Assembly (NCBI GenBank): GCA_965612795.1
Contig: CBFDTI010000001.1
Location: 5,116 to 69,115 of the forward strand
Source of the DNA: an uncultured bacterium
Lineage (GTDB): Bacteria > Hydrothermota > UBA3073 > NMUJ01
DNA: 64,000 nt
Reading direction: 5' to 3'
In this document: positions 4,549 through 40,323 of the stretch, in pieces
Layout: each line of letters starts with the position of its first letter
Position numbering within the stretch: the first letter of the stretch is position 1
Translations under genes and position numbers: made by a program
The notes under the pieces: model-generated
Database searches by the model: none
Seen by the model: only the letters and a program-made list of their open reading frames with translations
Told to the model about the DNA's origin: nothing

Positions 4549-5471
4549 TCCTTCTACCACTTATTTCACCTTCTGATACCGTCACCATACTCATACCCCC
4601 CGGCACCACCATCTACACAATCTCACAAACCTTACATGATTCCGGCATCATCCAAAGCCCCTGGCTTTTCCGCATATGGGCACGCCTCACCGCCACCGAT
4701 CGTCACCTCCAATCCGGCCTTTACCGTTTCCCTCGCCCCTATACCATTGAAGCCACACTACACAAACTACGTACAGGTAAGGGTGAGCTCATCAAACTCA
4801 CCATCCCCGAAGGCCTCACCTTACATGAAATTGCCACACTTGTCGAATCCCATCTTTACGTACCACGTGACAGCTTCCTCCACTATGCACACGATACCTC
4901 CTTCTTACACAGCTTAGGCATACCCGCCACCACCGCCGAAGGTTACCTATTCCCCACCACCTATTTCCTACCACCCTTCATCTCCGCCCGCCACGTACTA
5001 AAGGAGATGATACATCAGTTCTACCAACACATCACCCCCGACATGCTAAACCGTGCCTCACAGCTCGGCTTCTCCCTACACGAAATCGTCACCCTCGCCT
5101 CCATCATCGAAAAAGAAGCCGTCCTCAAATCCGAGCTACCACTCATCTCATCCGTCTTCCACAACCGGCTCTCCCGTGGCATGAAACTCGAAGCCAACCC
5201 CACCGTCGAGTATGCATTAGGTCATAAAAAGCGCTGGCTCACCAACAAAGATTTACAAACCCCTTCCCCCTATAATACCTATCTATATCCCGGGTTACCA
5301 CCCGGCCCCATCTGTAACCCCAGCCTCGACGCAATACTTGCTGCCTTATATCCCGCAGATACTGATTATCTTTACTTTGTCAGCCGTGGCGACGGCACCC
5401 ATATCTTTTCCAAAACCTACACCGCACACAAGCGTGCCGTCCGCCGTCTACGTAAGTTCTGGCTCCGTTAG
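4536..5471 (+). CDS. mltG: Endolytic murein transglycosylase MltG (YceG-like)
   Basis: C-terminal signature SPYNTYLYPGLPPGPICNP plus N-terminal TM segment; start moved to ATG 4536 (MVWLILLPLI) to avoid 45-nt overlap with upstream gene; ORF-track start 4503 also possible. Confidence 0.8.
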   Translation: MVWLILLPLISPSDTVTILIPPGTTIYTISQTLHDSGIIQSPWLFRIWARLTATDRHLQSGLYRFPRPYTIEATLHKLRTGKGELIKLTIPEGLTLHEIATLVESHLYVPRDSFLHYAHDTSFLHSLGIPATTAEGYLFPTTYFLPPFISARHVLKEMIHQFYQHITPDMLNRASQLGFSLHEIVTLASIIEKEAVLKSELPLISSVFHNRLSRGMKLEANPTVEYALGHKKRWLTNKDLQTPSPYNTYLYPGLPPGPICNPSLDAILAALYPADTDYLYFVSRGDGTHIFSKTYTAHKRAVRRLRKFWLR

Positions 5472-8400
5472 AACTTAAACTCCGTCCAGACCCTCACCCC
5501 CAATATCTGCGTATCCGTACCACGTGTCCTCTCCTTACTACGGCTGTAGTTTATGCTTGCACCCCCCACAATAACCGACGAAAACCTATACGAACCCTCC
5601 AACCTCACACTTATACTATAGCTATCACGTGTCTTATGTCCCGTCGTGATATTCTTCCTCTCATCCACTGTACGACTAACTTTAAGGTTGAAGTTCACCG
5701 ACCTCCCACCTTTCAACCACCCCAGTATCGGTGTCCCTCCCTGTGTTGTCACACTAAACGATGTACTGAAATTCACATTCTGTCGCCTATTACTCCATAC
5801 GTTGCGGTTCCAATCCTCCTCTTTACTGCGGGTTTCACTTATACTGAAGCTTATCGGCATATTGGGTTTCTTAAGGTTAGCCCCACTGATCTGCAAATTC
5901 CATTCCTCCTGCACACTCTGAATCGTATCCCCACGTTCACACCTCACCGTACGTGACTTCTTATAATTCAAAGATGGGCTCACCCCAGTTATAAGTTTAG
6001 CCATCCCCGGTATGTACCTCTCTACCCCCGTAATCCTAACCATCGCATCCGGGAACCTCACCACCTCCTGTACTGAAAAGTTACCCAACTTACCACCACT
6101 CGTCCTACTCTCCTGATAGTTGATGCTAACACTCAGAATATCTTTCAGGTTGAACCCCGACCCTACCTTCAGGTTGAACCCATCCTGCTTCATATCATCC
6201 GTATACGGTAACTTAGGTAGGTTCTCAAAATCCACCCTCCTACCGTATCGGAACTCACTCGGCGGCCGTTCCTTCAGGTAATAAAACCTAAACGTCCTAT
6301 TATTTGATACACTCACCTGCACCGGATTCACCCACCCAAGTAGTGGTAACTCCTTCGTCGGCAATGTAATATTAAACTCATTCCTTATGTCGAGCCCCAC
6401 ATTCCTCAAATCCATCGTATCACTTATGAGCTCCCTACCATGATATTCGTTATACCCCACACTGTAAGTCCATCTCGGTTGTAACTTCCATACGCTCGGC
6501 GTAAGGTTTATCGAAACGTTCTCCCTCCAATTCGTCTGTGCCTCTATAACCATATCCTGTACCACCTCCAACCCATACCTCACCGATATCATCTTCATCG
6601 GACTATACCCCACATTCGCCGAATATGTGATATTCCTCTGCCACGGTGTCCTCCTGCTCAACGTATAGGTTTCACCCATCCTCCTGTACCTCACCGCATG
6701 TTGTGCCCCATAACTTGCACCCAACCTTATACTCTGTGGCAACATCTGCCATTCCCATTTCCATATAGAAATAGGTTTGATAGATGGCCTCACCTCATAC
6801 GTCGCATTCAACGTCGCATTATACGATGAATCTATACTTTCATACGATTCGTTCCACCCCTGCCTGTAACTACCCGTAACATTCAAATTATCAAATATCA
6901 CATGCGTAAGCCAGAACTTCGACGCCTTACTCTTACGCCAGCTCACCGTCACACTACGGTTTTCTGCCAAACTCGCATAATCCTTACGCACATCCTCCTT
7001 CAGCTCAACATCCTTACCCGCCAGATATCTGGGTAAACTGCGACTCCTGCTCATCGTCACCCGCACCGGTATCACCACACCCCAATCCTTCGGCAAGAAC
7101 TTATGTAAGCTCACACTTCCGTTCACCGTATACGCGTACCTCTCACCTCCCCCAAACCTATACGCTTCACCCATCTGTTTAAAATACGGATCCCTATGCG
7201 TAAACGCAACATCCACATCCGCCACATCCGCCAGCTTCACCTTACCTCTTAACTCGCTCGCAAACCCCACCTCTGCCCGCACCTCACTCAAAAACAGATC
7301 ATCCACCCATATAACCCCAGACACAGTCTGTTCACCTTCATTCGCTATCACAAGCTCTATCCTCCTGATATTTGTAAGCGATGGCCTCCCCTTTATCCCG
7401 TATATCCCCTGCCTGAATATACCCTCAACCGTATCCGGACGTATCATCTTCAGGTTTGTCAACTCCTTAAATGGTACCCTAATCTCACGCCACTCGTACC
7501 CATCAAGCTCCACTTTATACTCATAGAAATTGGACGTATCACCCCCAAACCTCACATATAACGTAACCGGGTCACCCTCATACAGCCTCACATAGAACAC
7601 CAGACTCTTATACATCAAGAAATCCATCCCATTCGGCTCGGTAAAATACACTCTTACACTGCTGTCAGGTGCCACCTCCCGATACGTCAACACCATCGAC
7701 CCTTCTGGTTTCAACCTACCCAGTTCGTCACGCTCCACCTTCACCTCCGGTGGCGGCGTATATTCCTCCGCCCCTATCGTCGATATATACGATATTTCGA
7801 CTTTCGGTTCACCTTCCGCTGGTTTAACCACCCTCCACTTCGTACCTACCACATTAAACTCCACTATATCCACAGTATCGGGTTCACCCACCTCCACCCA
7901 TATACGTGCCATCCTTATGCGATCCCATGAGGGTACCCCCACCACCTTGTACACTTGCTTAAGCGGCACCTGATACAATCGCCACCCATTGTACTCATCC
8001 ACCAAGAACACCGTATCTTCCAGATCCACCCTATACTCGTAGTAGTTTTCCTCCAGATCGAGCACCCCATTACCGTTAAGATCCTCAGTATTCAACCGCC
8101 CATCACCCTCCGTCCCATTAATATGCGAGTAATCATACGGCCTACTCGGATCGTACCTGTAGTCATCATTACCATCGTCACCTGGTACATTATCCTCATC
8201 ATCTCCCCTAACACCGTCCAACCCCACATCATCCACATCCTGCGACCACTCCCTCGTTACAGGGTCACCCTCTGCATCCAACTCACCGTTATACCCCTGT
8301 ATTGAACCATCCGCCACCCTTCTCGGTGCATCCTCCGGTATATTAGTACCCAGATCCACATACAACACACCCTTACCACGTACACGTATCTCTATATAAT

Positions 8401-28648: not shown

Positions 28649-30267
28649 TGCCTACAATAGTTGTACACAAAGAAGATTTCCTTACTCTGTTAGGTCACGT
28701 ACCAGATACCGACGAGCTAGCACGTGCCAAATCCCAATTAGTCGACATATTAGATGACGAACTCAAGATAGAGATAGCAGATACCAACCGCCCCGATCTA
28801 TGGAGTGCCGAAGGTATCGCACGTGAGCTATCAGGCCCCAAGGAGTACAGCTTCTTCGACACCTCCCCTCAATACGAGGTTATCGTCTCACCTGAAGTAC
28901 TCGAAGTACGCCCCTACATAGGTGCGTTCCTCGTCAAAGACATAAAATTAACCGACATTTCGCTACGTAGTATTATACAAAGTCAAGAAAAGCTCAGCGA
29001 CCTATACGGTAGAGGTAGACGTGACATAGCCATCGGCATATACGATGCATCAAAGATTGTCTTCCCCATACATTACCGTGGTGTACACCCATCAGAGGTA
29101 CGGTTCACGCCACTCGATATGACCGAGGAGCTATCACTCGATGAGATATTAGATAAACATCCAAAAGGCATCGAATACGGCCACCTAATCAAGTCGTGTA
29201 AATTCTATCCGTTACTTGTAGACAACGATAACAAGGTGCTATCGTTCCCCCCCATAATAAACAGCCGTTACATTGGTGAAGTCAAACCCGCTCACACATA
29301 TTTATTCTGCGAAACCACAGGCACTAACCTCGAAATGGTGCTACTCGTAACCAATATCCTTGCAACCAACTTCGCCGATCGTGGTGCCCAGATATTACCT
29401 ATTTTGATAGTCTACCCCAACGGCAAGAAGGTCAAAACTCCCCAGGATATCAGCGAACCTTGGGAATTATCACCCCATGAGGTACAGGAGCTGCTCGGCA
29501 TCTCTTTAGATATGGACGAAATCCACTCCACTCTACGGGCTGCTAATTACAGGATTAAAGATGGCAAACTCTATCCTCCCCCTTGGCGTGCTGATATCAT
29601 GAGTGTAGCCGATATAATCGAAGACATAGCAATACACCGTGGTTATAATACGTTTACACCAGTGGGATTGACGGATTTCACGGTAGGTCACTCCGCCCCT
29701 ATTGAGGAGCTCATCGAAGATATCCGCAACATCATGGTAGGAATAGGGTTTGAAGAGATACTCTCACATGTACTCACATCAAAAGATAACCTCATATACC
29801 GTATGAACCTACCCGAACGTAAAATCATAGAAATCGATAACGTCATGAGCTTATCCTATTCTGTTCTACGTGATACAATAATACCGTCACTGTTGGAGGT
29901 TGAATCCCTAAGCAGCAAATCACTATACCCACATAAGTTGTTCGAAGTAGGTGAAGTCGTAATTTACGATCCAGACTCACCTGAATACTCCCGTACAGTG
30001 AACCATCTCGCTGCAATAGTAGCACATCCGCAAGCAAATTTCTCCGAAACACATAGCTATCTAAATGCACTATTTCATCAACTTAACCTCACTTACAAAA
30101 TAGAGCCAACCTCACACCCTTCTTACATATCCGGTAGGGTGGCCAAAATTCTCGTCAATAATAACGAAATCGGCATCATCGGCGAACTACACCCGGAAGT
30201 ACTTACCCGCTGGAACATTAAAATACCTGTAAGTGCATTTGAGATAGAAATAGATGCTATCGGTTAA
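28648..30267 (+). CDS. pheT: Phenylalanyl-tRNA synthetase beta subunit, archaeal-type (539 aa, lacks bacterial N-terminal domains)
   Basis: B3/B4 and B5-like regions; length typical of archaeal PheT; start overlaps pheS stop. Confidence 0.8.
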   Translation: MPTIVVHKEDFLTLLGHVPDTDELARAKSQLVDILDDELKIEIADTNRPDLWSAEGIARELSGPKEYSFFDTSPQYEVIVSPEVLEVRPYIGAFLVKDIKLTDISLRSIIQSQEKLSDLYGRGRRDIAIGIYDASKIVFPIHYRGVHPSEVRFTPLDMTEELSLDEILDKHPKGIEYGHLIKSCKFYPLLVDNDNKVLSFPPIINSRYIGEVKPAHTYLFCETTGTNLEMVLLVTNILATNFADRGAQILPILIVYPNGKKVKTPQDISEPWELSPHEVQELLGISLDMDEIHSTLRAANYRIKDGKLYPPPWRADIMSVADIIEDIAIHRGYNTFTPVGLTDFTVGHSAPIEELIEDIRNIMVGIGFEEILSHVLTSKDNLIYRMNLPERKIIEIDNVMSLSYSVLRDTIIPSLLEVESLSSKSLYPHKLFEVGEVVIYDPDSPEYSRTVNHLAAIVAHPQANFSETHSYLNALFHQLNLTYKIEPTSHPSYISGRVAKILVNNNEIGIIGELHPEVLTRWNIKIPVSAFEIEIDAIG

Positions 30268-31399
30268 CCACTTTATCAAAGATTGATGCCAACTTACCCA
30301 CAACATGTGCTGCCTGGAACCCCTCAATCGTACCTCTCCATGGGTAATTATCAGAGTAGAACGCATTGTAATACTTTAGTATCAAACGTTTTATCCCATC
30401 AATATCGTCTGGATCCACTCCCTCACCCATACCATACTTTTCAACCAACTCACGTGCCCTCACCCCTCTGGGTGCTATCGCTATAACTGGATGCGGCATA
30501 CCCATATACTCGAACAACTTACATGTTATCATAAAGTGTGGCTCATACTTACCCACAAGCAACAGTAGCAACACACTGTTTTCGTAGAACCCCTTAATCC
30601 TATGATATGGCACATACGCGTAGTGTTTAATATACGGTCGTCGAGGCAGCGGTACCTCCAAATGCCCTACAAAGTTAACCTCTATTTTATCGCTATCTAT
30701 TTTACCTTCATCTATCAACTCATCGATCCCTTTAATAAATGTGTAGGGAGGTGCTAATTTACGTATCACCCCCGGATAGAGTATGGAGAATATCTCCATT
30801 TTAGGTACCTCTATAGTCATATCATATGGTGTAGGTATTATCTCAACCTTATCGTATCCATTGACATATTTGCGAAAAGTCTCATCCAACACCACAATAC
30901 GGTCGCTCACCCCATACACCCAGCGTTTAATCCAGTTATTGCTTACCCATGGGTCACGCAAGTCTATCACCAACGGCACCCCTGTTAACGTTTTCAAGAT
31001 CGCCCCTATTATGAGGTCAGTCACTGGTGGTGAGGTTGCAAATATCAGCTCTATTCTTTTGCGTTTGATCATATCGTAACCTTTGTAGATTGCAAACGGT
31101 ATCCACCCCATCTCCTTTTCTATCCATCGCAATAATTTAGGTCGTGCCTTACCACCGGTAAGTTGCGTAACACCCAAAAGTCTCAGTATCCGCAGCAGGT
31201 CGAGCGACTCAGTAAAACACACATCTTTAACAATGAGCAACGAACCATCATACGCATAGTAAGCACCAGGTTTGGGTGTCAAAACAACCGGTTCGTATCC
31301 ATATTCAGGAAGGTATTTCTCAAACCTCACCACCCTATGTACACCTGATAACCCCAATGGCGGGTGATAGTAAGCGATCAACAACACCCTACGCATCAT
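30257..31399 (-). CDS. Putative GT-B fold glycosyltransferase
   Basis: N-terminal LLIAYYHPPLGLSGVHR...GYEPVVLT and C-terminal FEYMGMPHPVIAI segments resemble GT4-like enzymes; weak. Confidence 0.45.
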   Translation of the reverse strand: MMRRVLLIAYYHPPLGLSGVHRVVRFEKYLPEYGYEPVVLTPKPGAYYAYDGSLLIVKDVCFTESLDLLRILRLLGVTQLTGGKARPKLLRWIEKEMGWIPFAIYKGYDMIKRKRIELIFATSPPVTDLIIGAILKTLTGVPLVIDLRDPWVSNNWIKRWVYGVSDRIVVLDETFRKYVNGYDKVEIIPTPYDMTIEVPKMEIFSILYPGVIRKLAPPYTFIKGIDELIDEGKIDSDKIEVNFVGHLEVPLPRRPYIKHYAYVPYHRIKGFYENSVLLLLLVGKYEPHFMITCKLFEYMGMPHPVIAIAPRGVRARELVEKYGMGEGVDPDDIDGIKRLILKYYNAFYSDNYPWRGTIEGFQAAHVVGKLASIFDKVVNR

Positions 31400-33462
31400 T
31401 TTGTAACAGCGAGCTTACCCCGTACCCAACGTCCATCAGCCAACTTAACAATAACTTGATAGACTCCCACCGGTATAGCATCCAATTCCTTCACATGTAT
31501 TATGGGGGAATCACCCTGTCCCGCAATAGAATATATTAACCTCCCACTCAACGTGTATAGATACATGGTTTGCCACACATAAGGGGTGACGATTGTCAAC
31601 GTACTATGTTTACCCACAACAAAAGGATTAGGATATATTTCAACTTTCGTAATCTCCCAACTTGGTGACAACGTAACCTTTGATATACCCCCACGTGTGG
31701 GTATCCACATTGAAAACCTCTCATTATCCCATACAATATCACGTGTAAAGTCCACATATTCCGAAGCCACCAACCCATCACCTATTGTGTAATTAATGAG
31801 TTCACCTGAACTTGGGTTAAGTACACTCACACCCTGCATATTCACCAGCATCCAGATTCTACCTTCCCAATCCTCTTCCAACGCCAGTATGTCATTGCTT
31901 GGCAGGTCACTATTGGTTGAGGTGTACTCACCGATCACCTTACCATCTCTTATCCGGAATACACCCGCACGTGTAGCCACCCATATATCACCAGCCCTAT
32001 CACATATGAGGTCCGTAACCCATGTAGTGGGTAGCAGGTTGCTCAGTATTTCAAACCCTCCATCCTTATGTATACATGCAATACCATACATGTGGCTACC
32101 TACCCACATATTTCCGTGACGATCCTCGGCAAACGCACCAGGTGTAACAAATTGCCACGTGTTGATAACCGAATCGTCCACAATCTCAAAGATATATCCA
32201 CCATTTGTACCTACCCACAGGTGATCGTTTGCATCTACGTACATACCCCAAACTATATTTGAGCCACTACCTGGTAAATGGAACCTTTTTAAAGAATCAC
32301 TTTCCGGGATATACTTTGCTAACCCTACATCATCACCCCAAAAGCTTATCCATAGGTTACCCTTACTATCACTCACGATATATCTTGCACGCTTAATTTC
32401 ATCTTCCCCAGCAAGATAATGCGCATAATACCATTTACCTTCTACCTCATATATTCGGGTGATGGCAGGCTCCCATGCCGTAAAATGTACCGCCCATATG
32501 TCACCGTTGGGGCTCAACGCTATACTGCTTGTGATATTGCTTACCATCGATGTAGGAAAACTATCCTTCAACAACGTATCCGTTGTCCAAGCTACCAACC
32601 CACATTTGAAACTACCCACCCATACTACACTATCTAAAATCACTAAATGGCCTTGCCCCCTTGGTGCATAAAGTAACGGCGTAAGTGATGGCCACCATGT
32701 ACCGTTCCACTTTTTAACACCCCACCTCGTAGAAGCCAACAGCAAAGTATCACCCTTACAGAAATCGAACACCTCCGGATACGCATTCACAAGTTGCGAA
32801 CTTCCCCTTACATACATCACTATCCCAGAGTCTGTACCCACCCATAAAGTGTCATTACACCACTCCAATGCCGTAATCCTAGCTTCCCTAACTTCAACCG
32901 GTAGATCCGTCTTTGGTATCACATGCCAGCCGTTACCTTCAACATCCGTTACACCGATACCGTCTTCTGTACAGAACCACAACGAATCGTTATGATAATA
33001 AACACGCAATACTTTATTATCCAACGGTACAGGTAGGTTCCAATAGCTTATTCTCTCAATATCGGATAAGTTAGCAGCAAGTTCCAATACCGTGACAGGT
33101 GCATCATCCTCAGTAGCTATCCATACTCTTCTACCTGCTACTGCCATTGAAGAGAACCTGTCACTTTGTGGTAACCCCTGTGCGTTCGTGTAACTGTACG
33201 ATATACCATGCGTGAAGATTACCAACCCCTTACTACGTGTAAGACACCACACCCCAGACGAGTCTACAAATATATCCTGTACGTTATTTTCGGTAAGCCC
33301 ATCCACATTTGTTAAATGTTGTAACTCATCCGTATCAGGGTTATAAATTACCACACCACCCTCGGTTGCTGCATAAATACAAGTTTCGTAATGAAAAATA
33401 TCATTCACTTTATAAGTAGAGAGAAAGCTCTCCCATACGATCCCCAATACAAACAATATCAT
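31396..33462 (-). CDS. Secreted beta-propeller protein (two-component-regulator-propeller-like repeats) with T9SS C-terminal sorting domain
   Basis: Repeated W/Y-containing blade motifs; C-terminus YPNPFVVGKHSTLTIV...GVYQVIVKLADGRWVRGKLAVTK matches the Por secretion tail (YPNPF start). Confidence 0.6.
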   Translation of the reverse strand: MILFVLGIVWESFLSTYKVNDIFHYETCIYAATEGGVVIYNPDTDELQHLTNVDGLTENNVQDIFVDSSGVWCLTRSKGLVIFTHGISYSYTNAQGLPQSDRFSSMAVAGRRVWIATEDDAPVTVLELAANLSDIERISYWNLPVPLDNKVLRVYYHNDSLWFCTEDGIGVTDVEGNGWHVIPKTDLPVEVREARITALEWCNDTLWVGTDSGIVMYVRGSSQLVNAYPEVFDFCKGDTLLLASTRWGVKKWNGTWWPSLTPLLYAPRGQGHLVILDSVVWVGSFKCGLVAWTTDTLLKDSFPTSMVSNITSSIALSPNGDIWAVHFTAWEPAITRIYEVEGKWYYAHYLAGEDEIKRARYIVSDSKGNLWISFWGDDVGLAKYIPESDSLKRFHLPGSGSNIVWGMYVDANDHLWVGTNGGYIFEIVDDSVINTWQFVTPGAFAEDRHGNMWVGSHMYGIACIHKDGGFEILSNLLPTTWVTDLICDRAGDIWVATRAGVFRIRDGKVIGEYTSTNSDLPSNDILALEEDWEGRIWMLVNMQGVSVLNPSSGELINYTIGDGLVASEYVDFTRDIVWDNERFSMWIPTRGGISKVTLSPSWEITKVEIYPNPFVVGKHSTLTIVTPYVWQTMYLYTLSGRLIYSIAGQGDSPIIHVKELDAIPVGVYQVIVKLADGRWVRGKLAVTK

Positions 33463-33851
33463 TTACCCAGCTTATTACGTATGAATTCTATCACCTGCTC
33501 TTTGTTGCCCCTAAACCTCACGTACATACCACGAAAGTTTTCCAACCTGTTGGGTTTATCAAACGGGCTAAGCAATACACCATATTTATCGACATAGTAG
33601 CTTTTGATCGACTCCCAGCGCCTGAATTGTGTCACAAAGAACCCCTTTTTATAGACACCCCTGTCGTTCATTACATAGGTGGTTGGCAAAAAATACGACA
33701 ATATATTTACAACAAGCAAAAACGTACCAAATAATGTCCACCACACTCCCCACGTATAGTAAAGACCAATCGCCAAAAACACAATAAAAGCTATCAAATA
33801 CGCTGTTTTACGTGGCTCCTCTTTAGCGGGTAACGACCGCCATTCTATCAT
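33459..33851 (-). CDS. Membrane protein with two TM helices and a bacterial PH-like (YdbS/bPH_2-type) domain
   Basis: Two hydrophobic helices then ~70-aa soluble domain; architecture-based call. Confidence 0.4.
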   Translation of the reverse strand: MIEWRSLPAKEEPRKTAYLIAFIVFLAIGLYYTWGVWWTLFGTFLLVVNILSYFLPTTYVMNDRGVYKKGFFVTQFRRWESIKSYYVDKYGVLLSPFDKPNRLENFRGMYVRFRGNKEQVIEFIRNKLGK

Positions 33852-34954
33852 AACTTAAGTTTATCAAACTCAGGTTTCAACATCTCATAGATTTTATCGA
33901 GTGCTGCTGATATCACCTTTGTATCACCAATTACTGGCATAAAGTTGGTATCCCCCAACCACCTTGGTACAATATGTACATGTATATGGTCGACCACACC
34001 CGCACCCGCCACTTTACCCACATTTATACCGATGTTGAACCCATGGGGATGCATCACCTTACGCAATATCTCCACAGAGGCTTGTACTAAACGCCCAACC
34101 TCCACAAGCTCTTCCGGAGTCAACTCTGTCAGTTCACCAGTGTGACGTGTGGGTGCTACCATCAAATGTCCGTTATTATAAGGGAAGATATTCATGACAA
34201 CAAAAGCCCGTTCACTACGATACAATACATAGCTCTTGGCCATATTTTTGAGCGCATCACAAAATATGCATCCCCCCTTGCGTGGCCCCGTTATGTACTC
34301 TATACGCCAAGGTGCCCACAACCTATGCGGTACTGTTGTCAACAGCTTTTCAGTTGTCTTAAAATGTAACTTCGCAACCTTACCTAATGCGTGTTCACCT
34401 TTTGTTAAGACAAATTCCTTACCTATCAGCTCCACTTCTGTAGACGCGCCCTTGGGTAACACCATACCTTCGCTCTCCGATAATTTATTTAATTGCTCCA
34501 AAAATGTAGCACGTGCCAAAAGTGACGCCAGCATCACCGCAAGATCCTCCTCCCCATGTGGATGTATCACCAACGGTACTCCTTTCGGGAAATACGATTT
34601 TATAAAATCCGGATCCGCAAACTGATCTATCACTATACGGTCGCAACTACCCACACTGTTAAGTAGCTTCATCACAACCCTACTATGTAGCCATGCCAAG
34701 ATATGGTTGAGGTTAGGTGTCCTACTATAGAGCTTATTGTATTCTGTAGGCGCCAGATAGCATATCTCATGTACACACAATTTTTTAATTTCCTGGCTCA
34801 GATATATAGCTTGTGCATCGGTTACCTTTTTGCTCTCCCTTATTGGTAGTTTCTTCAGTTCTGGTAGCTTCTCGTCATCCAAAAATACTGCCGCAACTGC
34901 CAATCCACCAAAATAATCCCCCTTACCAGCTTCGTCACTACCTATCCATCTCAT
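33848..34954 (-). CDS. Fusion: RNase HII-like N-domain + HIT (histidine triad) nucleotide hydrolase C-domain
   Basis: N-terminus IGSDEAGKGDYFGGLAVAAV (RNase H2 active-site motif); C-terminus GCIFCDAL...VDHIHVHIVPR (HIT HxHxHxx). Confidence 0.6.
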   Translation of the reverse strand: MRWIGSDEAGKGDYFGGLAVAAVFLDDEKLPELKKLPIRESKKVTDAQAIYLSQEIKKLCVHEICYLAPTEYNKLYSRTPNLNHILAWLHSRVVMKLLNSVGSCDRIVIDQFADPDFIKSYFPKGVPLVIHPHGEEDLAVMLASLLARATFLEQLNKLSESEGMVLPKGASTEVELIGKEFVLTKGEHALGKVAKLHFKTTEKLLTTVPHRLWAPWRIEYITGPRKGGCIFCDALKNMAKSYVLYRSERAFVVMNIFPYNNGHLMVAPTRHTGELTELTPEELVEVGRLVQASVEILRKVMHPHGFNIGINVGKVAGAGVVDHIHVHIVPRWLGDTNFMPVIGDTKVISAALDKIYEMLKPEFDKLKL

Positions 34955-37371
34955 TTTGTAACTATATTGATGAGCTTTTTAGGTACCACGATGATACGTT
35001 TCACCTGCTTACCCATAATATGTTGCCGTATTTTGGGATGTTCCAGTGCCATCTTACGTATATCGTCTTCTGTCACATCAAACGGTACCTGCAGACGTAC
35101 CCTAAGCTTACCATCAACCTGCACCGGTATCTCAATCTCCGGTAGGTATACTTTCCCTGGATCATACTGAGGCCAACTTGCGTGGAAAATAGATCCCTCA
35201 CCTCCGATCCTATGCCATAATTCTTCCGCTAGATATGGTGCAAATGGTGCAATCAGCTTCACTAACGTATAAAGCCCATAACCGAGCGTCTCGTCCTTTC
35301 CAGACTTGTAGAATTCATTGACAAGCTCCATCAACGCCGCTATCGCAGTATTATAGTGGAAATCTTCAATATCCTCCGTAACCTTCTTGATCGTGTAGTT
35401 AATCCTACGCAATAATATACTGTCATTAGCCGGTACATTCTCCGTGATTATATCGGTGTTCTCCGTCACAATCCTATAGACTCGATCAAGGAACCGCCGT
35501 GCACCTTCAACTACACGTTCGCTCCATATACCTTCTTTTTCCGGTGGCCCCAGAAACAGCACCCCCACACGTGCAACGTCTGCACCTACCCGCTGCACGA
35601 GAGGTCTCACCGGTACAGCTGTACCCCTTGAAGATGACATCACCTTTCCGTCTTCGTTCAATATCATACCCTGTGTGAACAACCGTAATGCCGGTTCATT
35701 CACCGGCGATATACCTGCATCGTATAACACTTTCGTGATAAATCTGAAGTATATCAGGTGACCGGTTGCATGCTCGATACCACCAATATATTGATCGATA
35801 GGCATCCATCTCTTCGCTATCTTAGGGTCAAATATTTCGTTATCGTTATGTGGGTCGGTGTATCGCAGTTGATACCAAGATGAATCCACGAACGTATCCA
35901 TAGTATCAGGGTCACGCTTTGCATCCCCTCCACACCGTGGACACTTTGTATTTATAAATTCAGGTACCGACTCAAGTGGCGATTTACCTTTAGGAGCGTA
36001 ATCCACCACTTCAGGTAATTTCACCGGTAACTCTTCTTCCGGCACAGGTACCACACCACAACGTGGACAATGTATCATAGGGATTGGTGCACCCCAATAA
36101 CGTTGCCGTGATACAAGCCAATCCCTAAGATGGAATTGCACCTCTCTACCACCCAATCCCATGGCCTTGAGCTCATCCGCCACTGCTGAAATCCCCTCTT
36201 CAGAGGTAAGTCCCGTAAATTTACCAGATTCTATCATCACCCCGTACTCTTCATAAGCTTTATCGAGCGGTTCGCTTAATTCACTATCCACGGGTTTAAT
36301 TACTACCTTTATCGGTAAGCCATACTTTTTAGCAAACTCAAAATCACGCTGATCGTGTGCAGGTACACCCATTACGATACCTGTCCCATATGTAGCAAGT
36401 ACATAATCACACACATAGATCGGAATACGTTCACCCGTAAAGGGATGCACCGCATATAGGCCTGTGAATACCCCAGTCTTTTCGCGTTCACGTGATGTAC
36501 GCTCTATCTCCGAAATCCTAAGCGACCTCTCGATATATTGGTGAACCTCCTCACTTAAGGGTAAGCCTTCCAATATCTCATGTTCTGGTGCTATCGCAAT
36601 AAATGTCACCCCAAATACAGTATCAGCACGTGTTGTAAACACTGGTAACTGCTTATCGAACTCTGGTAGCTTAAACACGATACGTACACCCTCGCTCTTG
36701 CCGATCCAATTTCGTTGCAGGTTTATCACCTCATCAGGCCATTTACCTTCGAGATATTTCAGATCATCCAGTAACCTCTCCGCATATGCAGTAATTTTGA
36801 AGAACCATTGGGTTAACTTACGTTTAATTACAAGGCTGCTACAACGCCAACATTTGCCATCACTCACTTGTTCGTTAGCTAACACTGTCTGACAGTTTGG
36901 GCACCAGTTCACATATGCAGGTTTACGGTAGGCCAGCCCTCTCTTGTAAAGTAGAAGGAATATCCATTGCGTCCATTTGTAGTACTCCGGTTCGCACGTC
37001 AGTATCTCACGTGTCCAATCATAACTTATACCCATGAGTCGGTAGCTTTCACGTGATATCTCGATATTCTTCATTGTCCAATCTCTTGGGTGTATACCAT
37101 GCCGTATTGCTGCATTCTCTGCGGGTAGGCCAAACGCATCCCAGCCCACCGGATGCAACACCTGATACCCCTGCATCATTTTGTACCGGGTTAATACATC
37201 ACCCAACACATAGTTACGTAGATGCCCTATGTGTAAGTCACCTGATGGATACGCGAACATCTCCAGTACGTAGAATTTTCTGGCCGGATCCGGTCTATCC
37301 GTAGTTCTATAAATACCCTGGGTCTCCCACCACTTACGCCATCTATCCTCTATTTCATGAATCGGGTACAT
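34951..37371 (-). CDS. leuS: Leucyl-tRNA synthetase
   Basis: Class I HIGH (PSGDLHIGHL) and KMSKS-region, CP1 editing domain, overall LeuS layout. Confidence 0.95.
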   Translation of the reverse strand: MYPIHEIEDRWRKWWETQGIYRTTDRPDPARKFYVLEMFAYPSGDLHIGHLRNYVLGDVLTRYKMMQGYQVLHPVGWDAFGLPAENAAIRHGIHPRDWTMKNIEISRESYRLMGISYDWTREILTCEPEYYKWTQWIFLLLYKRGLAYRKPAYVNWCPNCQTVLANEQVSDGKCWRCSSLVIKRKLTQWFFKITAYAERLLDDLKYLEGKWPDEVINLQRNWIGKSEGVRIVFKLPEFDKQLPVFTTRADTVFGVTFIAIAPEHEILEGLPLSEEVHQYIERSLRISEIERTSREREKTGVFTGLYAVHPFTGERIPIYVCDYVLATYGTGIVMGVPAHDQRDFEFAKKYGLPIKVVIKPVDSELSEPLDKAYEEYGVMIESGKFTGLTSEEGISAVADELKAMGLGGREVQFHLRDWLVSRQRYWGAPIPMIHCPRCGVVPVPEEELPVKLPEVVDYAPKGKSPLESVPEFINTKCPRCGGDAKRDPDTMDTFVDSSWYQLRYTDPHNDNEIFDPKIAKRWMPIDQYIGGIEHATGHLIYFRFITKVLYDAGISPVNEPALRLFTQGMILNEDGKVMSSSRGTAVPVRPLVQRVGADVARVGVLFLGPPEKEGIWSERVVEGARRFLDRVYRIVTENTDIITENVPANDSILLRRINYTIKKVTEDIEDFHYNTAIAALMELVNEFYKSGKDETLGYGLYTLVKLIAPFAPYLAEELWHRIGGEGSIFHASWPQYDPGKVYLPEIEIPVQVDGKLRVRLQVPFDVTEDDIRKMALEHPKIRQHIMGKQVKRIIVVPKKLINIVTK

Positions 37372-37395
37372 CGAATTTATAACTAAAACTACAGA

Positions 37396-38007
37396 TTAAG
37401 GGTTGAAGTCAACCCACCATTTCTTGCCTTTTGTGAGTTCACACAGTTTTACCACATTCTTACCGACCAATGTTGCATAATGTACCGCTTCACGATCTTT
37501 TGTAACATCCTCAAACCCTATCGAGTATGTAAACCCATACGGTGGGAATAACAGACCCATATCGTTAAGTGTACCCATCAACCCCAATATAGTTTGCATC
37601 GCACCATCCTCCGTACCGGTTACGACTATGCCACCAACTTTACCATCGAGTAACTTACCTTCGTTCTCAAGCGCTGTTAGCCTATCTATGAGGTTCTTCA
37701 TCATCCCTGACATCGCGTACCAGTACACTGGGGTGACGAAAATCAAGATATCCGCCTCCAGTATCTTTTCAAATATCCAAACCATATCATCACGCAGATC
37801 GTCCGATGTACATGTGCGGCGGGTACATTTTTTCGGATCTTCCGACCCACACCCCTTACATGGACGGATATCGCAATCTACAAGATGTAAGATTTCCACT
37901 TCATAACCACTTTCTTCTATTGTTTCAATCACCACACGAGCTAATTCCATGGTTATACCATCTTTACGAGGTGACCCATTTATAACAAGCGCTTTACCCA
38001 TTGTCAC
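37396..38007 (-). CDS. Iron-sulfur flavoprotein / NADPH-dependent FMN reductase family
   Basis: LVINGSPRKDG flavodoxin-like motif plus compact Cys cluster CKGCGSEDPKKC typical of Isf-like proteins. Confidence 0.7.
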   Translation of the reverse strand: MTMGKALVINGSPRKDGITMELARVVIETIEESGYEVEILHLVDCDIRPCKGCGSEDPKKCTRRTCTSDDLRDDMVWIFEKILEADILIFVTPVYWYAMSGMMKNLIDRLTALENEGKLLDGKVGGIVVTGTEDGAMQTILGLMGTLNDMGLLFPPYGFTYSIGFEDVTKDREAVHYATLVGKNVVKLCELTKGKKWWVDFNP

Positions 38008-38857
38008 CTCCCACTTTCACGGTAATATTATCAATAAGCCTTGCCTTACCGAGATATGCAGCAATAGCTATAAGAGCTTCACCCTTTTCCAACCTCTCTA
38101 TCGGGTTGAGTTCCTCTTTATCCACGATCTCGATATATTCCACCCTTATGCGATCGTACTTAGATAGGAACTCGTGCATAGCGGCTATAATTTTACTTGC
38201 ATCACGTTCACCCTGTTCCACAAGGTTTTTGGCCAACAATAGCGATTGATAAATAGCAGGTGCTACCTTACGTTCTTCCTCAGTAAGATATTCGTTTCTT
38301 GAGCTCATCGCCAGTCCATCTGGTTCACGTACGGTGGGCCCCACGATTATTTTGACGGGAAAGTTAAGGTCACGCACCATCCGTTTTATTATTATTGCCT
38401 GTTGTGCATCTTTCTCACCAAATACTGCAATATCTGGCATAACGATATTGAAGAGCTTCGCCACCACCGTAGTGACACCACGAAAATGTCCTGGCCTGTA
38501 TCTACCACATAGCTTATCGGAGAGCCCCTTCACCTCGACATATGTGGTAAACCCCTTAGGATACAGGTCATCAACCGATGGGTAAAACATTATATCTACC
38601 CCCATCTTCTCAAGTATCTCTTTGTCACGCTCAATATCCCTGGGATATCTATCGTAATCTTCACTCGGTCCAAACTGAATGGGGTTGACAAATATACTCA
38701 CAACCACAATATCAGCATGCTTGCGTGCTATATTTATAAGAGAAGTATGTCCCTCATGCAGATACCCCATAGTGGGTACGAACCCCACTGTCTTACCCCG
38801 TCTTTTATATTCAAGCGATAGTCGCTGCATATCTTTTGACCGTGTCACGATCCTCAT
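37994..38857 (-). CDS. panC: Pantoate--beta-alanine ligase
   Basis: PTMGYLHEGHTSLI (PTMGxLHxGH) and downstream PanC motifs. Confidence 0.9.
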   Translation of the reverse strand: MRIVTRSKDMQRLSLEYKRRGKTVGFVPTMGYLHEGHTSLINIARKHADIVVVSIFVNPIQFGPSEDYDRYPRDIERDKEILEKMGVDIMFYPSVDDLYPKGFTTYVEVKGLSDKLCGRYRPGHFRGVTTVVAKLFNIVMPDIAVFGEKDAQQAIIIKRMVRDLNFPVKIIVGPTVREPDGLAMSSRNEYLTEEERKVAPAIYQSLLLAKNLVEQGERDASKIIAAMHEFLSKYDRIRVEYIEIVDKEELNPIERLEKGEALIAIAAYLGKARLIDNITVKVGGDNG

Positions 38858-39308
38858 CGCTGAGCTCCTTCACTAACTCATACACTGTTTTCTTAAGAAC
38901 GGGATGCACCAAATTAGGTGCTATATCAGCCAGCGGTATCAACACAAACGGCCGTACATGTAAATATGGGTGTGGTATCTTAAGTTCAGGTGTATCGAGT
39001 ATCAATTCATCGTAAAATAAGATGTCAATATCTATCTCACGTGGCCCCCAACGTGGTGACGGTTGACGTCCTACCCGTTGTTCTATCGCTTTTATCTCAC
39101 GAAGAAGTAACAATGGTGCAAGCTCCGTCACCATCCTTATCACAGCGTTTAAAAATCGTGGCTGTACCATCTGACCCCATGCTTCTGTCTCATAAACTGG
39201 CGATATTGTGATTAGTTTTCCTACTTTGTGAAGCTCACCTATTGCACGTTTAAGATAGATTAACCTTTCCCCTTTGTTCGATCCTAACCCCAGATATACT
39301 TCATTCAC
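38811..39308 (-). CDS. folK: 2-amino-4-hydroxy-6-hydroxymethyldihydropteridine pyrophosphokinase (HPPK)
   Basis: VYLGLGSNKG...PRxIDIDIL HPPK motifs. Confidence 0.9.
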   Translation of the reverse strand: MNEVYLGLGSNKGERLIYLKRAIGELHKVGKLITISPVYETEAWGQMVQPRFLNAVIRMVTELAPLLLLREIKAIEQRVGRQPSPRWGPREIDIDILFYDELILDTPELKIPHPYLHVRPFVLIPLADIAPNLVHPVLKKTVYELVKELSDEDRDTVKRYAATIA

Positions 39309-40323
39309 TACCCAATTCTTTAGCTTTGTTCATATCCTGGATAGATGCATCCTTATTACCTAACTTCCAATGTATACCCGATCGTATAGTATAATACTCT
39401 GCTTTGTTGGGGTTTATCTCGATTGCTTTCGAAATCGCATCGAGCGCCTTCTCGTAATTCTCCGCCTGTATACACATCACTGCCAGCAGATACCAAGCCT
39501 CTTCATCGTCGGGGTTAAGCTCTGTAGCTTTCGCAAACTCTTCTATAGCCTTATCGTATTGTTTAAGCTGTGCGTAAAGGTTACCCAAGTTGTAATAGGT
39601 ATCGCTATTGTTAGGGTTAAGCCTGAGCGACTCCTCAAAATACACTATGGCACTATCAGCATACTCTTTATCTTGTGTATCATTGTATTTATTTGCATAG
39701 ATAACACCCATGAAGTAATGTGCATCCCCACTGGTGTCGATTGCTATCCACTTCCTAAGTATAGAGAGAGCTTCGTCCCATTTCTTCTCTTTTGTGTAGC
39801 GATTAACCAGTATTTCTGCAGACTTCGATATCCATTCCGCTCGTGGGGAGTGTTCAATTATCCCTATGAGAGTGGATTCAGCAAGCGCCTCTTCACCACC
39901 CTGCAGGTATGCTTGTGCTAGGTAAAAATGTGCTGAGAACGAGTCAGGTTCTAACTCTATAGCGCGTTTAAACCGCTCTATCGCCTTATCCCACTCCTTT
40001 TCGTTGAAACACAGAGCACCAGCGTTGAAATACACACCCCAATAGAAGCCAATATCTTTCTCCATATCCTTAAATGCATATGCTGAATCGAGCTCTATAG
40101 CGTGCTCCCATGCATCACTTGCATTCAGATAGTCTTTCTTCATAGCATACGCACGACCCAACCACATGTAAGCGTCAGCGTTCGGGTTCTCGCTAATCTC
40201 AAGTTGAAACTGTTCGATCGCCTTATCCCAGTTCTGTTGTTGCATGTAAACCTTACCACCGGTCATATGTTCAGATGCACACCCTACAACCAACAGGCCA
40301 ACAAGAATAAGCCAGTGCTTCAT
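39301..40323 (-). CDS. TPR-repeat lipoprotein
   Basis: Lipobox LLVVGCAS followed by multiple 34-aa TPR repeats (W-LG-Y...A...F...A...P). Confidence 0.7.
   Translation of the reverse strand: MKHWLILVGLLVVGCASEHMTGGKVYMQQQNWDKAIEQFQLEISENPNADAYMWLGRAYAMKKDYLNASDAWEHAIELDSAYAFKDMEKDIGFYWGVYFNAGALCFNEKEWDKAIERFKRAIELEPDSFSAHFYLAQAYLQGGEEALAESTLIGIIEHSPRAEWISKSAEILVNRYTKEKKWDEALSILRKWIAIDTSGDAHYFMGVIYANKYNDTQDKEYADSAIVYFEESLRLNPNNSDTYYNLGNLYAQLKQYDKAIEEFAKATELNPDDEEAWYLLAVMCIQAENYEKALDAISKAIEINPNKAEYYTIRSGIHWKLGNKDASIQDMNKAKELGSE

Follow-up and report, generated by a model that had tools for sequence, protein, structure and literature searches.

Does a single bacterial gene really encode a nuclease and a nucleotide-processing enzyme in one chain, to which families do the two halves belong, and do they work together? 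This question is raised by a gene of an uncultivated WOR-3/Caldifarciminota bacterium from hot sediment, at positions 33848..34954 (minus strand) of a 64,000-nucleotide stretch of contig CBFDTI010000001.1, hereafter referred to as the window. An earlier note, made from the letters of this stretch alone, had read the gene product as an RNase HII-like domain fused to a histidine-triad (HIT) domain, and had suggested a ribonucleotide-excision nuclease coupled to a nucleotide phosphoramidase. The presence of an RNase H-type domain and a complete HIT domain in one open reading frame (ORF) was borne out by Pfam, by Foldseek and by an AlphaFold2 model, and both active sites are intact. The family assignments of both halves, however, had to be revised.

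According to the ORF list and the sequence itself, the frame is uninterrupted and comprises 368 codons plus TAA, with the ATG at 34954 and the stop codon at 33848-33850. The 368-aa protein starts with MRWIGSDEAGKGDYFGGLAVAAV, and residues 4-23 read IGSDEAGKGDYFGGLAVAAV. Orthologues with 93-94% identity were found in two metagenome-assembled genomes (MAGs) of WOR-3 bacteria, L001 and L002.

Identity of the two halves

The N-terminal half (aa 1-201; 34352..34954, minus strand) contains a type-2 RNase H catalytic domain. PF01351 (RNase_HII) matched aa 4-201 over profile positions 1-199 of 199, with an E-value of 9.4e-30 and 104.4 bits against a gathering cut-off of 25.8. To this extent the earlier assignment held, but the label HII did not, since the RNase HIII model TIGR00716 (rnhC) passes its equivalog threshold (175.6 bits; cut-off 161.2) and every RNase HII model stays far under its own, the best one reaching 48.9 bits against 123.3. 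Among PDB entries, the RNase HIII/H3 structures of Geobacillus stearothermophilus (2d0a/3asm, 4e-27), Thermovibrio ammonificans (4py5, 6e-25) and Aquifex aeolicus (3vn5, 1e-21) were matched best, while archaeal RNase HII chains gave weaker matches (1e-8 to 1e-11). For this half of the AlphaFold2 model, Foldseek returned 3asm, 2d0a and 4py5 as the top matches.

The catalytic carboxylates are all present and conserved in alignment, although the set is DEDE and not the D-E-D-D that had been proposed. D7 and E8 (codons at 34931..34936, minus strand) align to D97 and E98 of Bst RNase HIII and to D78 and E79 of Ta-RNase H3, and D110 (34625..34627, minus strand) aligns to Bst D202. The fourth carboxylate, E135 (34550..34552, minus strand), is the glutamate that forms the RNase HIII signature and aligns to Bst E232 and to 'KAEDD' of Ta-RNase H3. 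DEDE is the hallmark of RNase HIII, as opposed to the DEDD of RNases HI and HII (PMC9719913). Behind the first two carboxylates, the GXG motif G10-K11-G12 and D13 align to G81-K82-G83-E84 of the Ta enzyme, and the phosphate-pocket residues Y76 and H197 correspond to its Y147 and H263. In RNase HIII the GXG motif is followed by an acidic residue or by Ser. In Ta-RNase H3, Glu84 touches two 2'-OH groups and sits where RNase H2 has its junction-sensing tyrosine; the Asp13 found at this position in the fusion is a permitted variant according to the T. ammonificans complex paper (PMC4132731).

The fusion protein has no TBP-like N-domain (DUF3378, PF11858): Pfam gave no match for it, while the canonical homologue P0150 has one. 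The TIGR00716 alignment is restricted to profile positions 84-284, and residue 4 of the fusion is aligned with position 94 in the Bst enzyme. The protein begins three residues ahead of the first catalytic strand, and the DNA upstream is leuS in another frame. Because the TBP-like N-domain is missing despite the TIGR00716 pass, we filed this half as an N-domain-less RNase HIII-type domain; judged from its sequence, it is RNase HIII-type and not HII, and an N-domain-less variant and not a canonical RNase HIII. Biochemically, RNase HIII resembles RNase HI in cutting RNA/DNA hybrids and is no dedicated ribonucleotide-excision enzyme (PMC4132731, PMC9719913), so the excision activity ascribed to this half was not upheld. 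Some RNases HIII do cleave at single ribonucleotides with Mn2+ (PMC9719913). RNase HIII's N-domain is reported to enhance substrate binding and to matter in vivo (PMC4132731).

Stand-alone RNase HIII proteins without the N-domain, of about 205-250 aa, are numerous, and some of them are labelled 'ribonuclease HIII'. They include the proteins most closely related to the N-terminal half (46-50% identity; e.g. P0025, P0144 and P0053), and the equivalents of D7 and E8 are invariant in 12 out of 12 such proteins. A large class of RNases HIII lacking the hallmark domain of the family is thereby documented, which raises the question of how these enzymes find hybrids. The RNase HIII catalytic domain was also seen at the C-terminus of proteins of 585-670 aa (P0149, P0151, P0176, P0184, P0193, P0205, P0230 and P0271) and of the 414-aa P0278. 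The N-terminal 380-460 residues of the long proteins show weak matches to the RnlA toxin and to RnlA-DBD (TBP-like), and these RnlA-like regions may be multiplied hybrid-binding modules.

An inter-domain linker (aa 202-210, EKLLTTVPH; 34325..34351, minus strand), recognised from the alignment and from low model confidence, leads to the HIT domain (aa 211-368; 33851..34324, minus strand). PF01230 matched aa 239-331 with an E-value of 2.6e-17 and 63.7 bits against a cut-off of 21.5; neither this match nor that of PF01351 is anywhere near chance level. The motifs CIFC and HIHVHIVPR are present exactly as the earlier note had described them, on the minus strand, which it had left unstated. Read from the sequence, the CxxC motif C229-I-F-C232, where the HIT core begins, occupies 34259..34270, and HIHVHIVPR covers aa 323-331, its triad H323-I-H325-V-H327-I-V (aa 323-329) lying at 33968..33988.

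Over aa 210-365, the best PDB matches were the Ap4A (diadenosine tetraphosphate) phosphorylases of M. avium (6af2, 1.8e-35) and M. tuberculosis (Rv2613c, 3ano, 1.1e-32), with 35-40% identity. The match takes in both the N-terminal RLWAPWR and the C-terminal PRWxGDTNFMP extensions, and Foldseek on this half of the model returned 3ano, 3wo5 and 6af2. Close homologues carry the JGI label 'ATP adenylyltransferase'. The sole equivalog model for the HIT half, NF052622, is actinobacteria-specific and scored 142.2 bits on aa 210-362, under its cut-off of 290. The active-site residues Asn139, Gly146 and Ser147 of Rv2613c are said by Mori et al. in 2011 to be important. In the alignment Asn139 is conserved as N311, and Gly146 and Ser147 are changed to Ala318 and Gly319; S147 had been a mutagenesis target, PDB entry 3WO5 being titled 'S147Q of Rv2613c'. 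The CxxC cysteines are absent from Rv2613c but invariant in all aligned fused and stand-alone HITs, and the HIHVHIV triad is invariant in 13 out of 13 stand-alone HITs. By analogy to H112 of Hint1 and H96 of FHIT, H325 is predicted to be the nucleophile that forms a covalent AMP intermediate.

The mycobacterial enzymes possess a true HxHxHxx motif and yet cleave Ap4A phosphorolytically to ATP and ADP (PMC7705103). On sequence grounds the C-terminal half is a HIT domain of the Rv2613c-type branch, the acceptor of which may be either phosphate or water. The phosphoramidase reading of this half could not be maintained, as Hint-type models fell under their cut-offs (NF045834, 43.8 against 130 bits; PRK10687, 21.4 against 206) and the nearest characterised relatives are the mycobacterial Ap4A phosphorylases. 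By Pfam, the fusion protein contains neither the C2HE zinc finger of aprataxin nor an FHA domain, and merely about 35 residues follow the HIT core, which align to the C-terminal helix of Rv2613c. With regards to these profile matches, the HIT half is classed as neither a Hint-type phosphoramidase nor aprataxin-type.

Spread and conservation of the fusion

A word-index search over 5.8 billion proteins returned two-domain proteins in about 20 clusters at 90% identity (P0001-P0020; 45-93% identity), and all lower matches were single-domain. Thirty members, on contigs of up to 289 kb, fall into cluster 1 alone, and the source assemblies of the clusters come from NCBI, JGI, ENA and Logan. A local misassembly is contradicted by the same architecture in about 20 independent clusters from many assemblies. 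With HMMER over 1.84 billion representatives at 50% identity, one protein (P0002) among the best 150 matches covers both domains, a count which is meaningful because a two-domain match was bound to rank high. In species-representative genomes five fused loci were found, three of them in WOR-3 MAGs (L001, L002, L005) and two in unclassified MAGs (L003, L004); L001 is 'candidate division WOR-3 bacterium 4484_18', the phylum of which is now Caldifarciminota in the NCBI taxonomy. The fusion is rare, as the earlier note had expected in calling it uncommon, and restricted to one WOR-3 lineage. Its sequence is already public under an incomplete name, 'ribonuclease HIII' or 'Ribonuclease' in GenBank and UniRef, and a literature search found no paper on the RNase HIII-HIT architecture. 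Both superfamilies are well known, and nothing about the protein is categorically new.

In 21 out of 21 fusion proteins, all residues checked in both domains are invariant. These were D7, E8, G10-K11-G12, D13, Y76, D110, E135 and H197 in the nuclease, and C229, C232, N311, H323, H325, H327, R331 and W332 in the HIT domain. The linker, in contrast, varies between 8 and 72 aa across the same proteins and is unconserved, with low-complexity sequence in P0017 and P0018; that of the window protein belongs to the shortest class. Invariant active sites on both sides of a variable linker indicate purifying selection on both sites and a flexible tether. The AlphaFold2 model, calculated from a 46-sequence alignment, is confident for both halves, with a mean predicted local distance difference test score (pLDDT) of 87.6 and low values at the linker (about 205-225) and in the loop 339-348. 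Its predicted template modelling score (pTM) of 0.62 fits two well-folded domains that would have no fixed mutual orientation.

The two domains are fused in all close relatives except at one locus, L052 (L052:5965-7131, MAG contig JAUVIV010000034.1), where they form separate genes: a TAA is followed 2 nt on by an ATG in a different frame. An 8-nt deletion in the HIT gene of this locus removes T-N-F from GDTNFMP and shifts the frame. In a rough neighbour-joining tree of HIT domains, L052 is nested within the fused clade. An ancestral split state was rejected on account of this nesting and of the deletion, and L052 is read as a secondary fission or as a damaged or mis-assembled copy. Within the P0005 cluster, the annotation of one GenBank record gives a protein of 173 aa with the HIT domain only.

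Gene neighbourhoods and other fusions of the HIT clade

Directly downstream of the fusion lies a gene for a 130-aa protein (33459..33851, minus strand), whose start is overlapped by the fusion stop by 4 nt. Its sequence reads as two transmembrane helices and a soluble domain, and the gene stands beside the fusion in every fused locus. No match was found in Pfam, NCBIfam or PADLOC, and the word-index search gave two clusters only. Beside or near a HIT or fusion gene, the 130-aa protein was found in 14 loci from WOR-3, Stahlbacteria, Cloacimonadota and some unclassified MAGs. In the Stahlbacteria locus, the Cloacimonadota loci and an unclassified MAG it lies 3-11 nt 3' of an unfused HIT gene, and such a gap was seen in half of the loci (7/14). 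Homologues with 41-46% identity that lie 0-11 nt 3' of the HIT or fusion gene are L016:2043-2429, L018:6489-6884, L028:6480-6869, L036:5234-5623, L037:3821-4210, L063:504-887 and L003:5547-5930. Since the gene also follows unfused HIT genes, hit and the membrane-protein gene represent an older conserved pair, which rnhC joined later.

The neighbours of unfused HIT genes were clustered at 57 loci from other phyla. At 12 of them endonuclease Q (EndoQ) is encoded on the same strand, mostly 6-70 nt off and on either side of the HIT gene. This neighbour has 410 aa and matches PfuEndoQ (5zb8, 2.4e-68) and TIGR00375 over its full length. The loci with an adjoining EndoQ come from several candidate phyla (L006, L007, L008, L014, L016, L018, L021, L023, L028, L036, L037 and L038); in L021, for example, EndoQ at 4799-6031 stands beside HIT at 6034-6489. 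MutS, confirmed by Pfam, follows downstream on the same strand at 15 of the 57 loci. It begins about 60 nt after the HIT gene in six Nitrospinota (L020, L025, L027, L029, L031 and L032), and it lies farther off, at 1.6-2 kb with lapA/lapB-like genes between, in L011, L012, L017, L043, L045, L048, L050 and L059; outside the Nitrospinota the distance to HIT is 0.5-2 kb.

One Stahlbacteria locus and several Cloacimonadota loci share the layout EndoQ, HIT, membrane protein, and the window layout of RNase HIII::HIT followed by the membrane protein is the same slot arrangement. In the rough neighbour-joining tree, the fused HITs stand beside the membrane-protein-linked and the EndoQ-linked HITs. The placement with EndoQ and MutS lends moderate support to a role alongside DNA-repair enzymes. 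A literature search returned no paper on the EndoQ-HIT link and no relevant one on bacterial HIT deadenylases. A defence system composed of the nuclease, the HIT domain and the small membrane protein was considered as well and set aside: PADLOC gave only a generic HIT match (ThsC2, 4.8e-13) and none for the membrane protein or EndoQ.

The same HIT clade was found in further fusions, in which the HIT domains are 50-55% identical to that of the window protein. These are HIT-Nudix (P0165, Pfam-confirmed, and P0226, P0246 and P0249, recognised by the Nudix box), CYTH-HIT (P0028, P0142), YbeY-HIT (P0089), in which the partner is a nuclease of rRNA maturation, and tandem HIT (P0139, P0248). The clade readily fuses with enzymes acting on nucleotides or RNA. 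In six proteins (P0164, P0183, P0185, P0197, P0219 and P0277), the HIT domain is followed by a C-terminal domain of about 130 aa without a Pfam match. On a metagenome contig of 1.9 kb, an ORF of 309 aa (P0199; L067:333-1262) begins with the first ~100 residues of an NAD-dependent DNA ligase (Nlig-Ia, the start of the adenylation domain), continues with a garbled Gly/Arg-rich stretch and ends in a complete HIT domain. As a link between HIT and ligase it was discounted, being a single short contig with a garbled middle and probably a frameshifted or chimeric assembly. The gene of the nearest stand-alone short RNase HIII, P0025 (L064:4001-4663, L065:2852-3514), overlaps queC at its end and runs convergently to the pair ybeY-phoH; as the HIT clade has a fusion with YbeY too, this is a weak indirect link.

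Upstream of the fusion lies the leucyl-tRNA synthetase gene leuS (34951..37371, minus strand; assigned by Pfam and synteny comparison), the stop codon of which overlaps the start codon of the fusion in an ATGA. Ap4A is made by aminoacyl-tRNA synthetases, and leuS was therefore considered as a functional clue. It was rejected, as in the synteny comparison the adjacency was confined to the relatives with 93-94% identity and was lacking in L003-L005 and L052. In the minus-strand run 30257-40323 of the window, unrelated genes are densely packed with ends overlapping or nearly so: those for a TPR protein, HPPK, pantoate ligase, FMN reductase, leuS, the fusion, the membrane protein, a 688-aa Reg_prop beta-propeller protein and a glycosyltransferase. 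Because of this packing, adjacency alone carries little functional weight in this genome. In the WOR-3 4484_18 MAG, the orthologues of panC and leuS (L001:2544-2933 and L001:3823-6004) appear truncated or split into two ORFs, while both are intact in the window, which suggests frameshift errors in the L001 assembly.

Possible coupling of the two activities and relation to known systems

We see about even chances that the protein is a bifunctional enzyme with two catalytically competent halves and with some functional tie to nucleic-acid repair. That the halves work together is put forward as a hypothesis, and the substrates, the oligomeric state and the coupling described in the following are what we infer. 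The N-terminal half would act as a catalytic-domain-only RNase HIII, without the hybrid-binding domain. In the C-terminal half, the target of His325 would be the alpha-phosphate of an adenylate in 5'-5' pyrophosphate linkage, as in the Ap4A of the mycobacterial homologues, and phosphate or water would then resolve the covalent AMP-enzyme intermediate. Since HIT domains are obligate dimers and Rv2613c forms a tetramer, the fusion would present at least two RNase H heads, each on a flexible tether of 8-72 aa, and several tethered heads could offset the missing N-domain by avidity. With regards to its origin, a short rnhC would have joined the pair of hit and membrane-protein gene in one WOR-3/Caldifarciminota lineage, taking the upstream slot that endonuclease Q holds in Stahlbacteria and Cloacimonadota. 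The HIT domain may clean up after, or act as a partner of, enzymes that cut DNA on the 5' side of an abnormal nucleotide: it would strip adenylyl groups or Np4-type caps from the 5' ends exposed by them, or provide a local turnover of Ap4A.

Type-2 RNases H incise on the 5' side of a ribonucleotide. EndoQ incises on the 5' side of deoxyuridine (dU), deoxyinosine (dI) or abasic (AP) sites (PMC4858679, PMC4357722). In eukaryotes, incision by RNase H2 and abortive ligation lead to 5'-AMP-RNA-DNA, which is resolved by the HIT enzyme aprataxin (PMC11418127). The parallel between EndoQ, type-2 RNase H and aprataxin, although an analogy, is the strongest argument for coupling. A broader version makes the whole Rv2613c-like HIT clade the prokaryotic functional counterpart of aprataxin, with a 5'-end de-adenylylating or de-capping activity, possibly phosphorolytic and releasing ADP, that would serve nicks made by RNase HIII at RNA, by EndoQ at dU, dI or AP sites, and in mismatch repair, the WOR-3 fusion tethering it to its nuclease. 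This version we regard as doubtful. We know of no recognised aprataxin in bacteria. Were the counterpart reading true, the WOR-3 fusion would be its Rosetta-stone case, with the HIT domain physically tethered to its nuclease; were the two activities uncoupled, it would be no more than a gene fusion peculiar to one lineage of an uncultivated phylum. In either case, a stable fusion to RNase HIII and a recurrent placement with EndoQ and MutS turn the vague label of "Ap4A metabolism" into a testable hypothesis, namely that Rv2613c-type HITs act on adenylylated or Np4-capped 5' ends of nucleic acids in repair.

A number of points weigh against such a tie to repair. The activity of a short RNase HIII without the N-domain is assumed, and a domain reported to enhance binding and to matter in vivo (PMC4132731) is missing here. 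The only characterised HIT relatives, the Ap4A phosphorylases, point to free dinucleoside-polyphosphate metabolism, and the Nudix and CYTH partners suit this, or the metabolism of triphosphates, no less well than the repair of nucleic-acid ends. The HIT half lacks the zinc-finger DNA-binding module of the aprataxin type, and the variable linker and the pTM argue against a fixed composite active site. Moreover, the fusion is limited to a single lineage, and the 63 HIT loci collected with peptide patterns from the query are biased to its closer relatives. When 80 metagenome loci were sampled via EndoQ instead, HIT was adjacent in 8 of the 70 informative ones (about 11%; L068-L071, L092, L112, L116 and L142), so the EndoQ-HIT link is lineage-restricted. 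Neither RNase HIII nor MutS was found near EndoQ in these 70 loci, no RNase HIII gene was found by tblastn within 6 kb of the unfused HIT at the 57 loci, and no HIT was found near P0025 at the locus examined.

Several of these points suit an incidental fusion of two housekeeping enzymes, in which RNase HIII clears hybrid RNA and the HIT domain acts independently as an Ap4A phosphorylase controlling the free pool, two adjacent, translationally coupled genes of a compact genome having lost a stop codon to no harm. The kinship to Ap4A phosphorylases, the fusions of the clade to Nudix and CYTH as typical nucleotide-polyphosphate hydrolases, the one narrow lineage and the unconserved linker would all be expected. 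Irrespective of function, leuS and the genes for the fusion, the membrane protein and the beta-propeller protein are packed so as to overlap by 4 nt, and L052 has the halves as separate genes. However, the fusion was retained through divergence to 41-55% identity with both active sites invariant, and the split locus nests in the fused clade with its 8-nt deletion and looks derived or damaged. In addition, orthologues of the HIT gene stand independently by EndoQ, on either side, and by MutS in several phyla, which goes beyond packing alone. We lean against an incidental fusion while taking it as a serious possibility. An outright artefact, be it misassembly, a gene-calling error or a pseudogene, deserves practically no credence: the stop, restart and deletion in L052 and the HIT-only record in the P0005 cluster are set against an ORF that runs without a break both in the window and in about 20 clusters drawn from four sources (NCBI, JGI, ENA and Logan), with both domains folding confidently in AlphaFold2 and catalytic residues invariant.

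The HIT domain could also be a structural stand-in for the missing N-domain, that is, an oligomerisation or nucleic-acid-binding platform that raises hybrid affinity and whose own catalysis is secondary. HIT domains do dimerise, and the RNase HIII catalytic domain is modular, with DUF3378 or RnlA-like regions as other N-terminal modules, the latter in the 585-670 aa proteins; the TBP-like N-domain, a reported binding enhancer (PMC4132731), is absent. Still, this is unlikely, since the partnerless short RNase HIII (~220 aa) is common and the minimal domain evidently works alone, since a pure scaffold would not need histidines and nucleotide-pocket residues that are invariant in all fusions, and since the HIT domain sits at the C-terminus and not at the position of the N-domain. 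The combination first envisaged, a ribonucleotide-excision RNase HII with an aprataxin- or Hint-type adenylate hydrolase, is largely refuted at the family level and very improbable. The type-2 RNase H fold and the HIT motif are present, and cleavage at single ribonucleotides by some RNases HIII with Mn2+ (PMC9719913) would suit it. It is contradicted by HII models far under their cut-offs next to a passing HIII model, by the DEDE site and by Asp13, where an acidic residue replaces the junction-sensing tyrosine of RNase H2, as well as by the missing zinc finger and FHA domain and the poor Hint matches.

For the bifunctional enzyme that we favour, the closest structural comparison on the nuclease side is with bacterial RNases HIII (2D0A, 4PY5, 3VN5). 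The catalytic domain is shared at about 30% identity and a root-mean-square deviation of 2.1-2.9 A to the model, together with DEDE, the GXG motif with its acidic residue, the Tyr/His pocket and a C-terminal helical extension ending in AKLHFKTT. In contrast to these enzymes, the fusion lacks their TBP-like N-domain of 70-90 residues, which binds the hybrid at a distance of about 10 bp from where it is cut, and carries a HIT domain appended at the C-terminus. The stand-alone short RNases HIII (P0025, P0144 and P0053, the last annotated 'ribonuclease HIII [Nitrospiraceae bacterium]') share both the lack of the N-domain and the invariant residues, but they are unfused. On the HIT side, Rv2613c (3ANO/3WO5) and the M. 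avium enzyme (6AF2) have HxHxHxx, (R)LW(A/T)P(W/Y)R, PRWxGD(A/T)NF and the Asn139 equivalent in common with the fusion, which differs in scoring under the equivalog cut-off, in Ala318/Gly319 for Gly146/Ser147, in its CxxC motif and in being joined to a nuclease.

The resemblance to aprataxin is one of functional analogy only. Aprataxin belongs to the HIT superfamily, uses covalent His-AMP chemistry and acts after a type-2 RNase H on 5'-AMP-RNA-DNA (PMC11418127), but it represents another HIT branch, with a C-terminal, DNA-binding C2HE zinc finger and usually an FHA domain, both of which the fusion is without, and the sequence relation is limited to the HIT core. The CYTH-HIT, HIT-Nudix, YbeY-HIT and tandem HIT proteins share the HIT domain at 50-55% identity, whereas a partner that is a nuclease for DNA/RNA hybrids was found only in the WOR-3 lineage. 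As far as its domains can be classified by such comparisons, the protein is an N-domain-less RNase HIII-type domain joined to an Rv2613c-type HIT domain, and a plain member of neither family.

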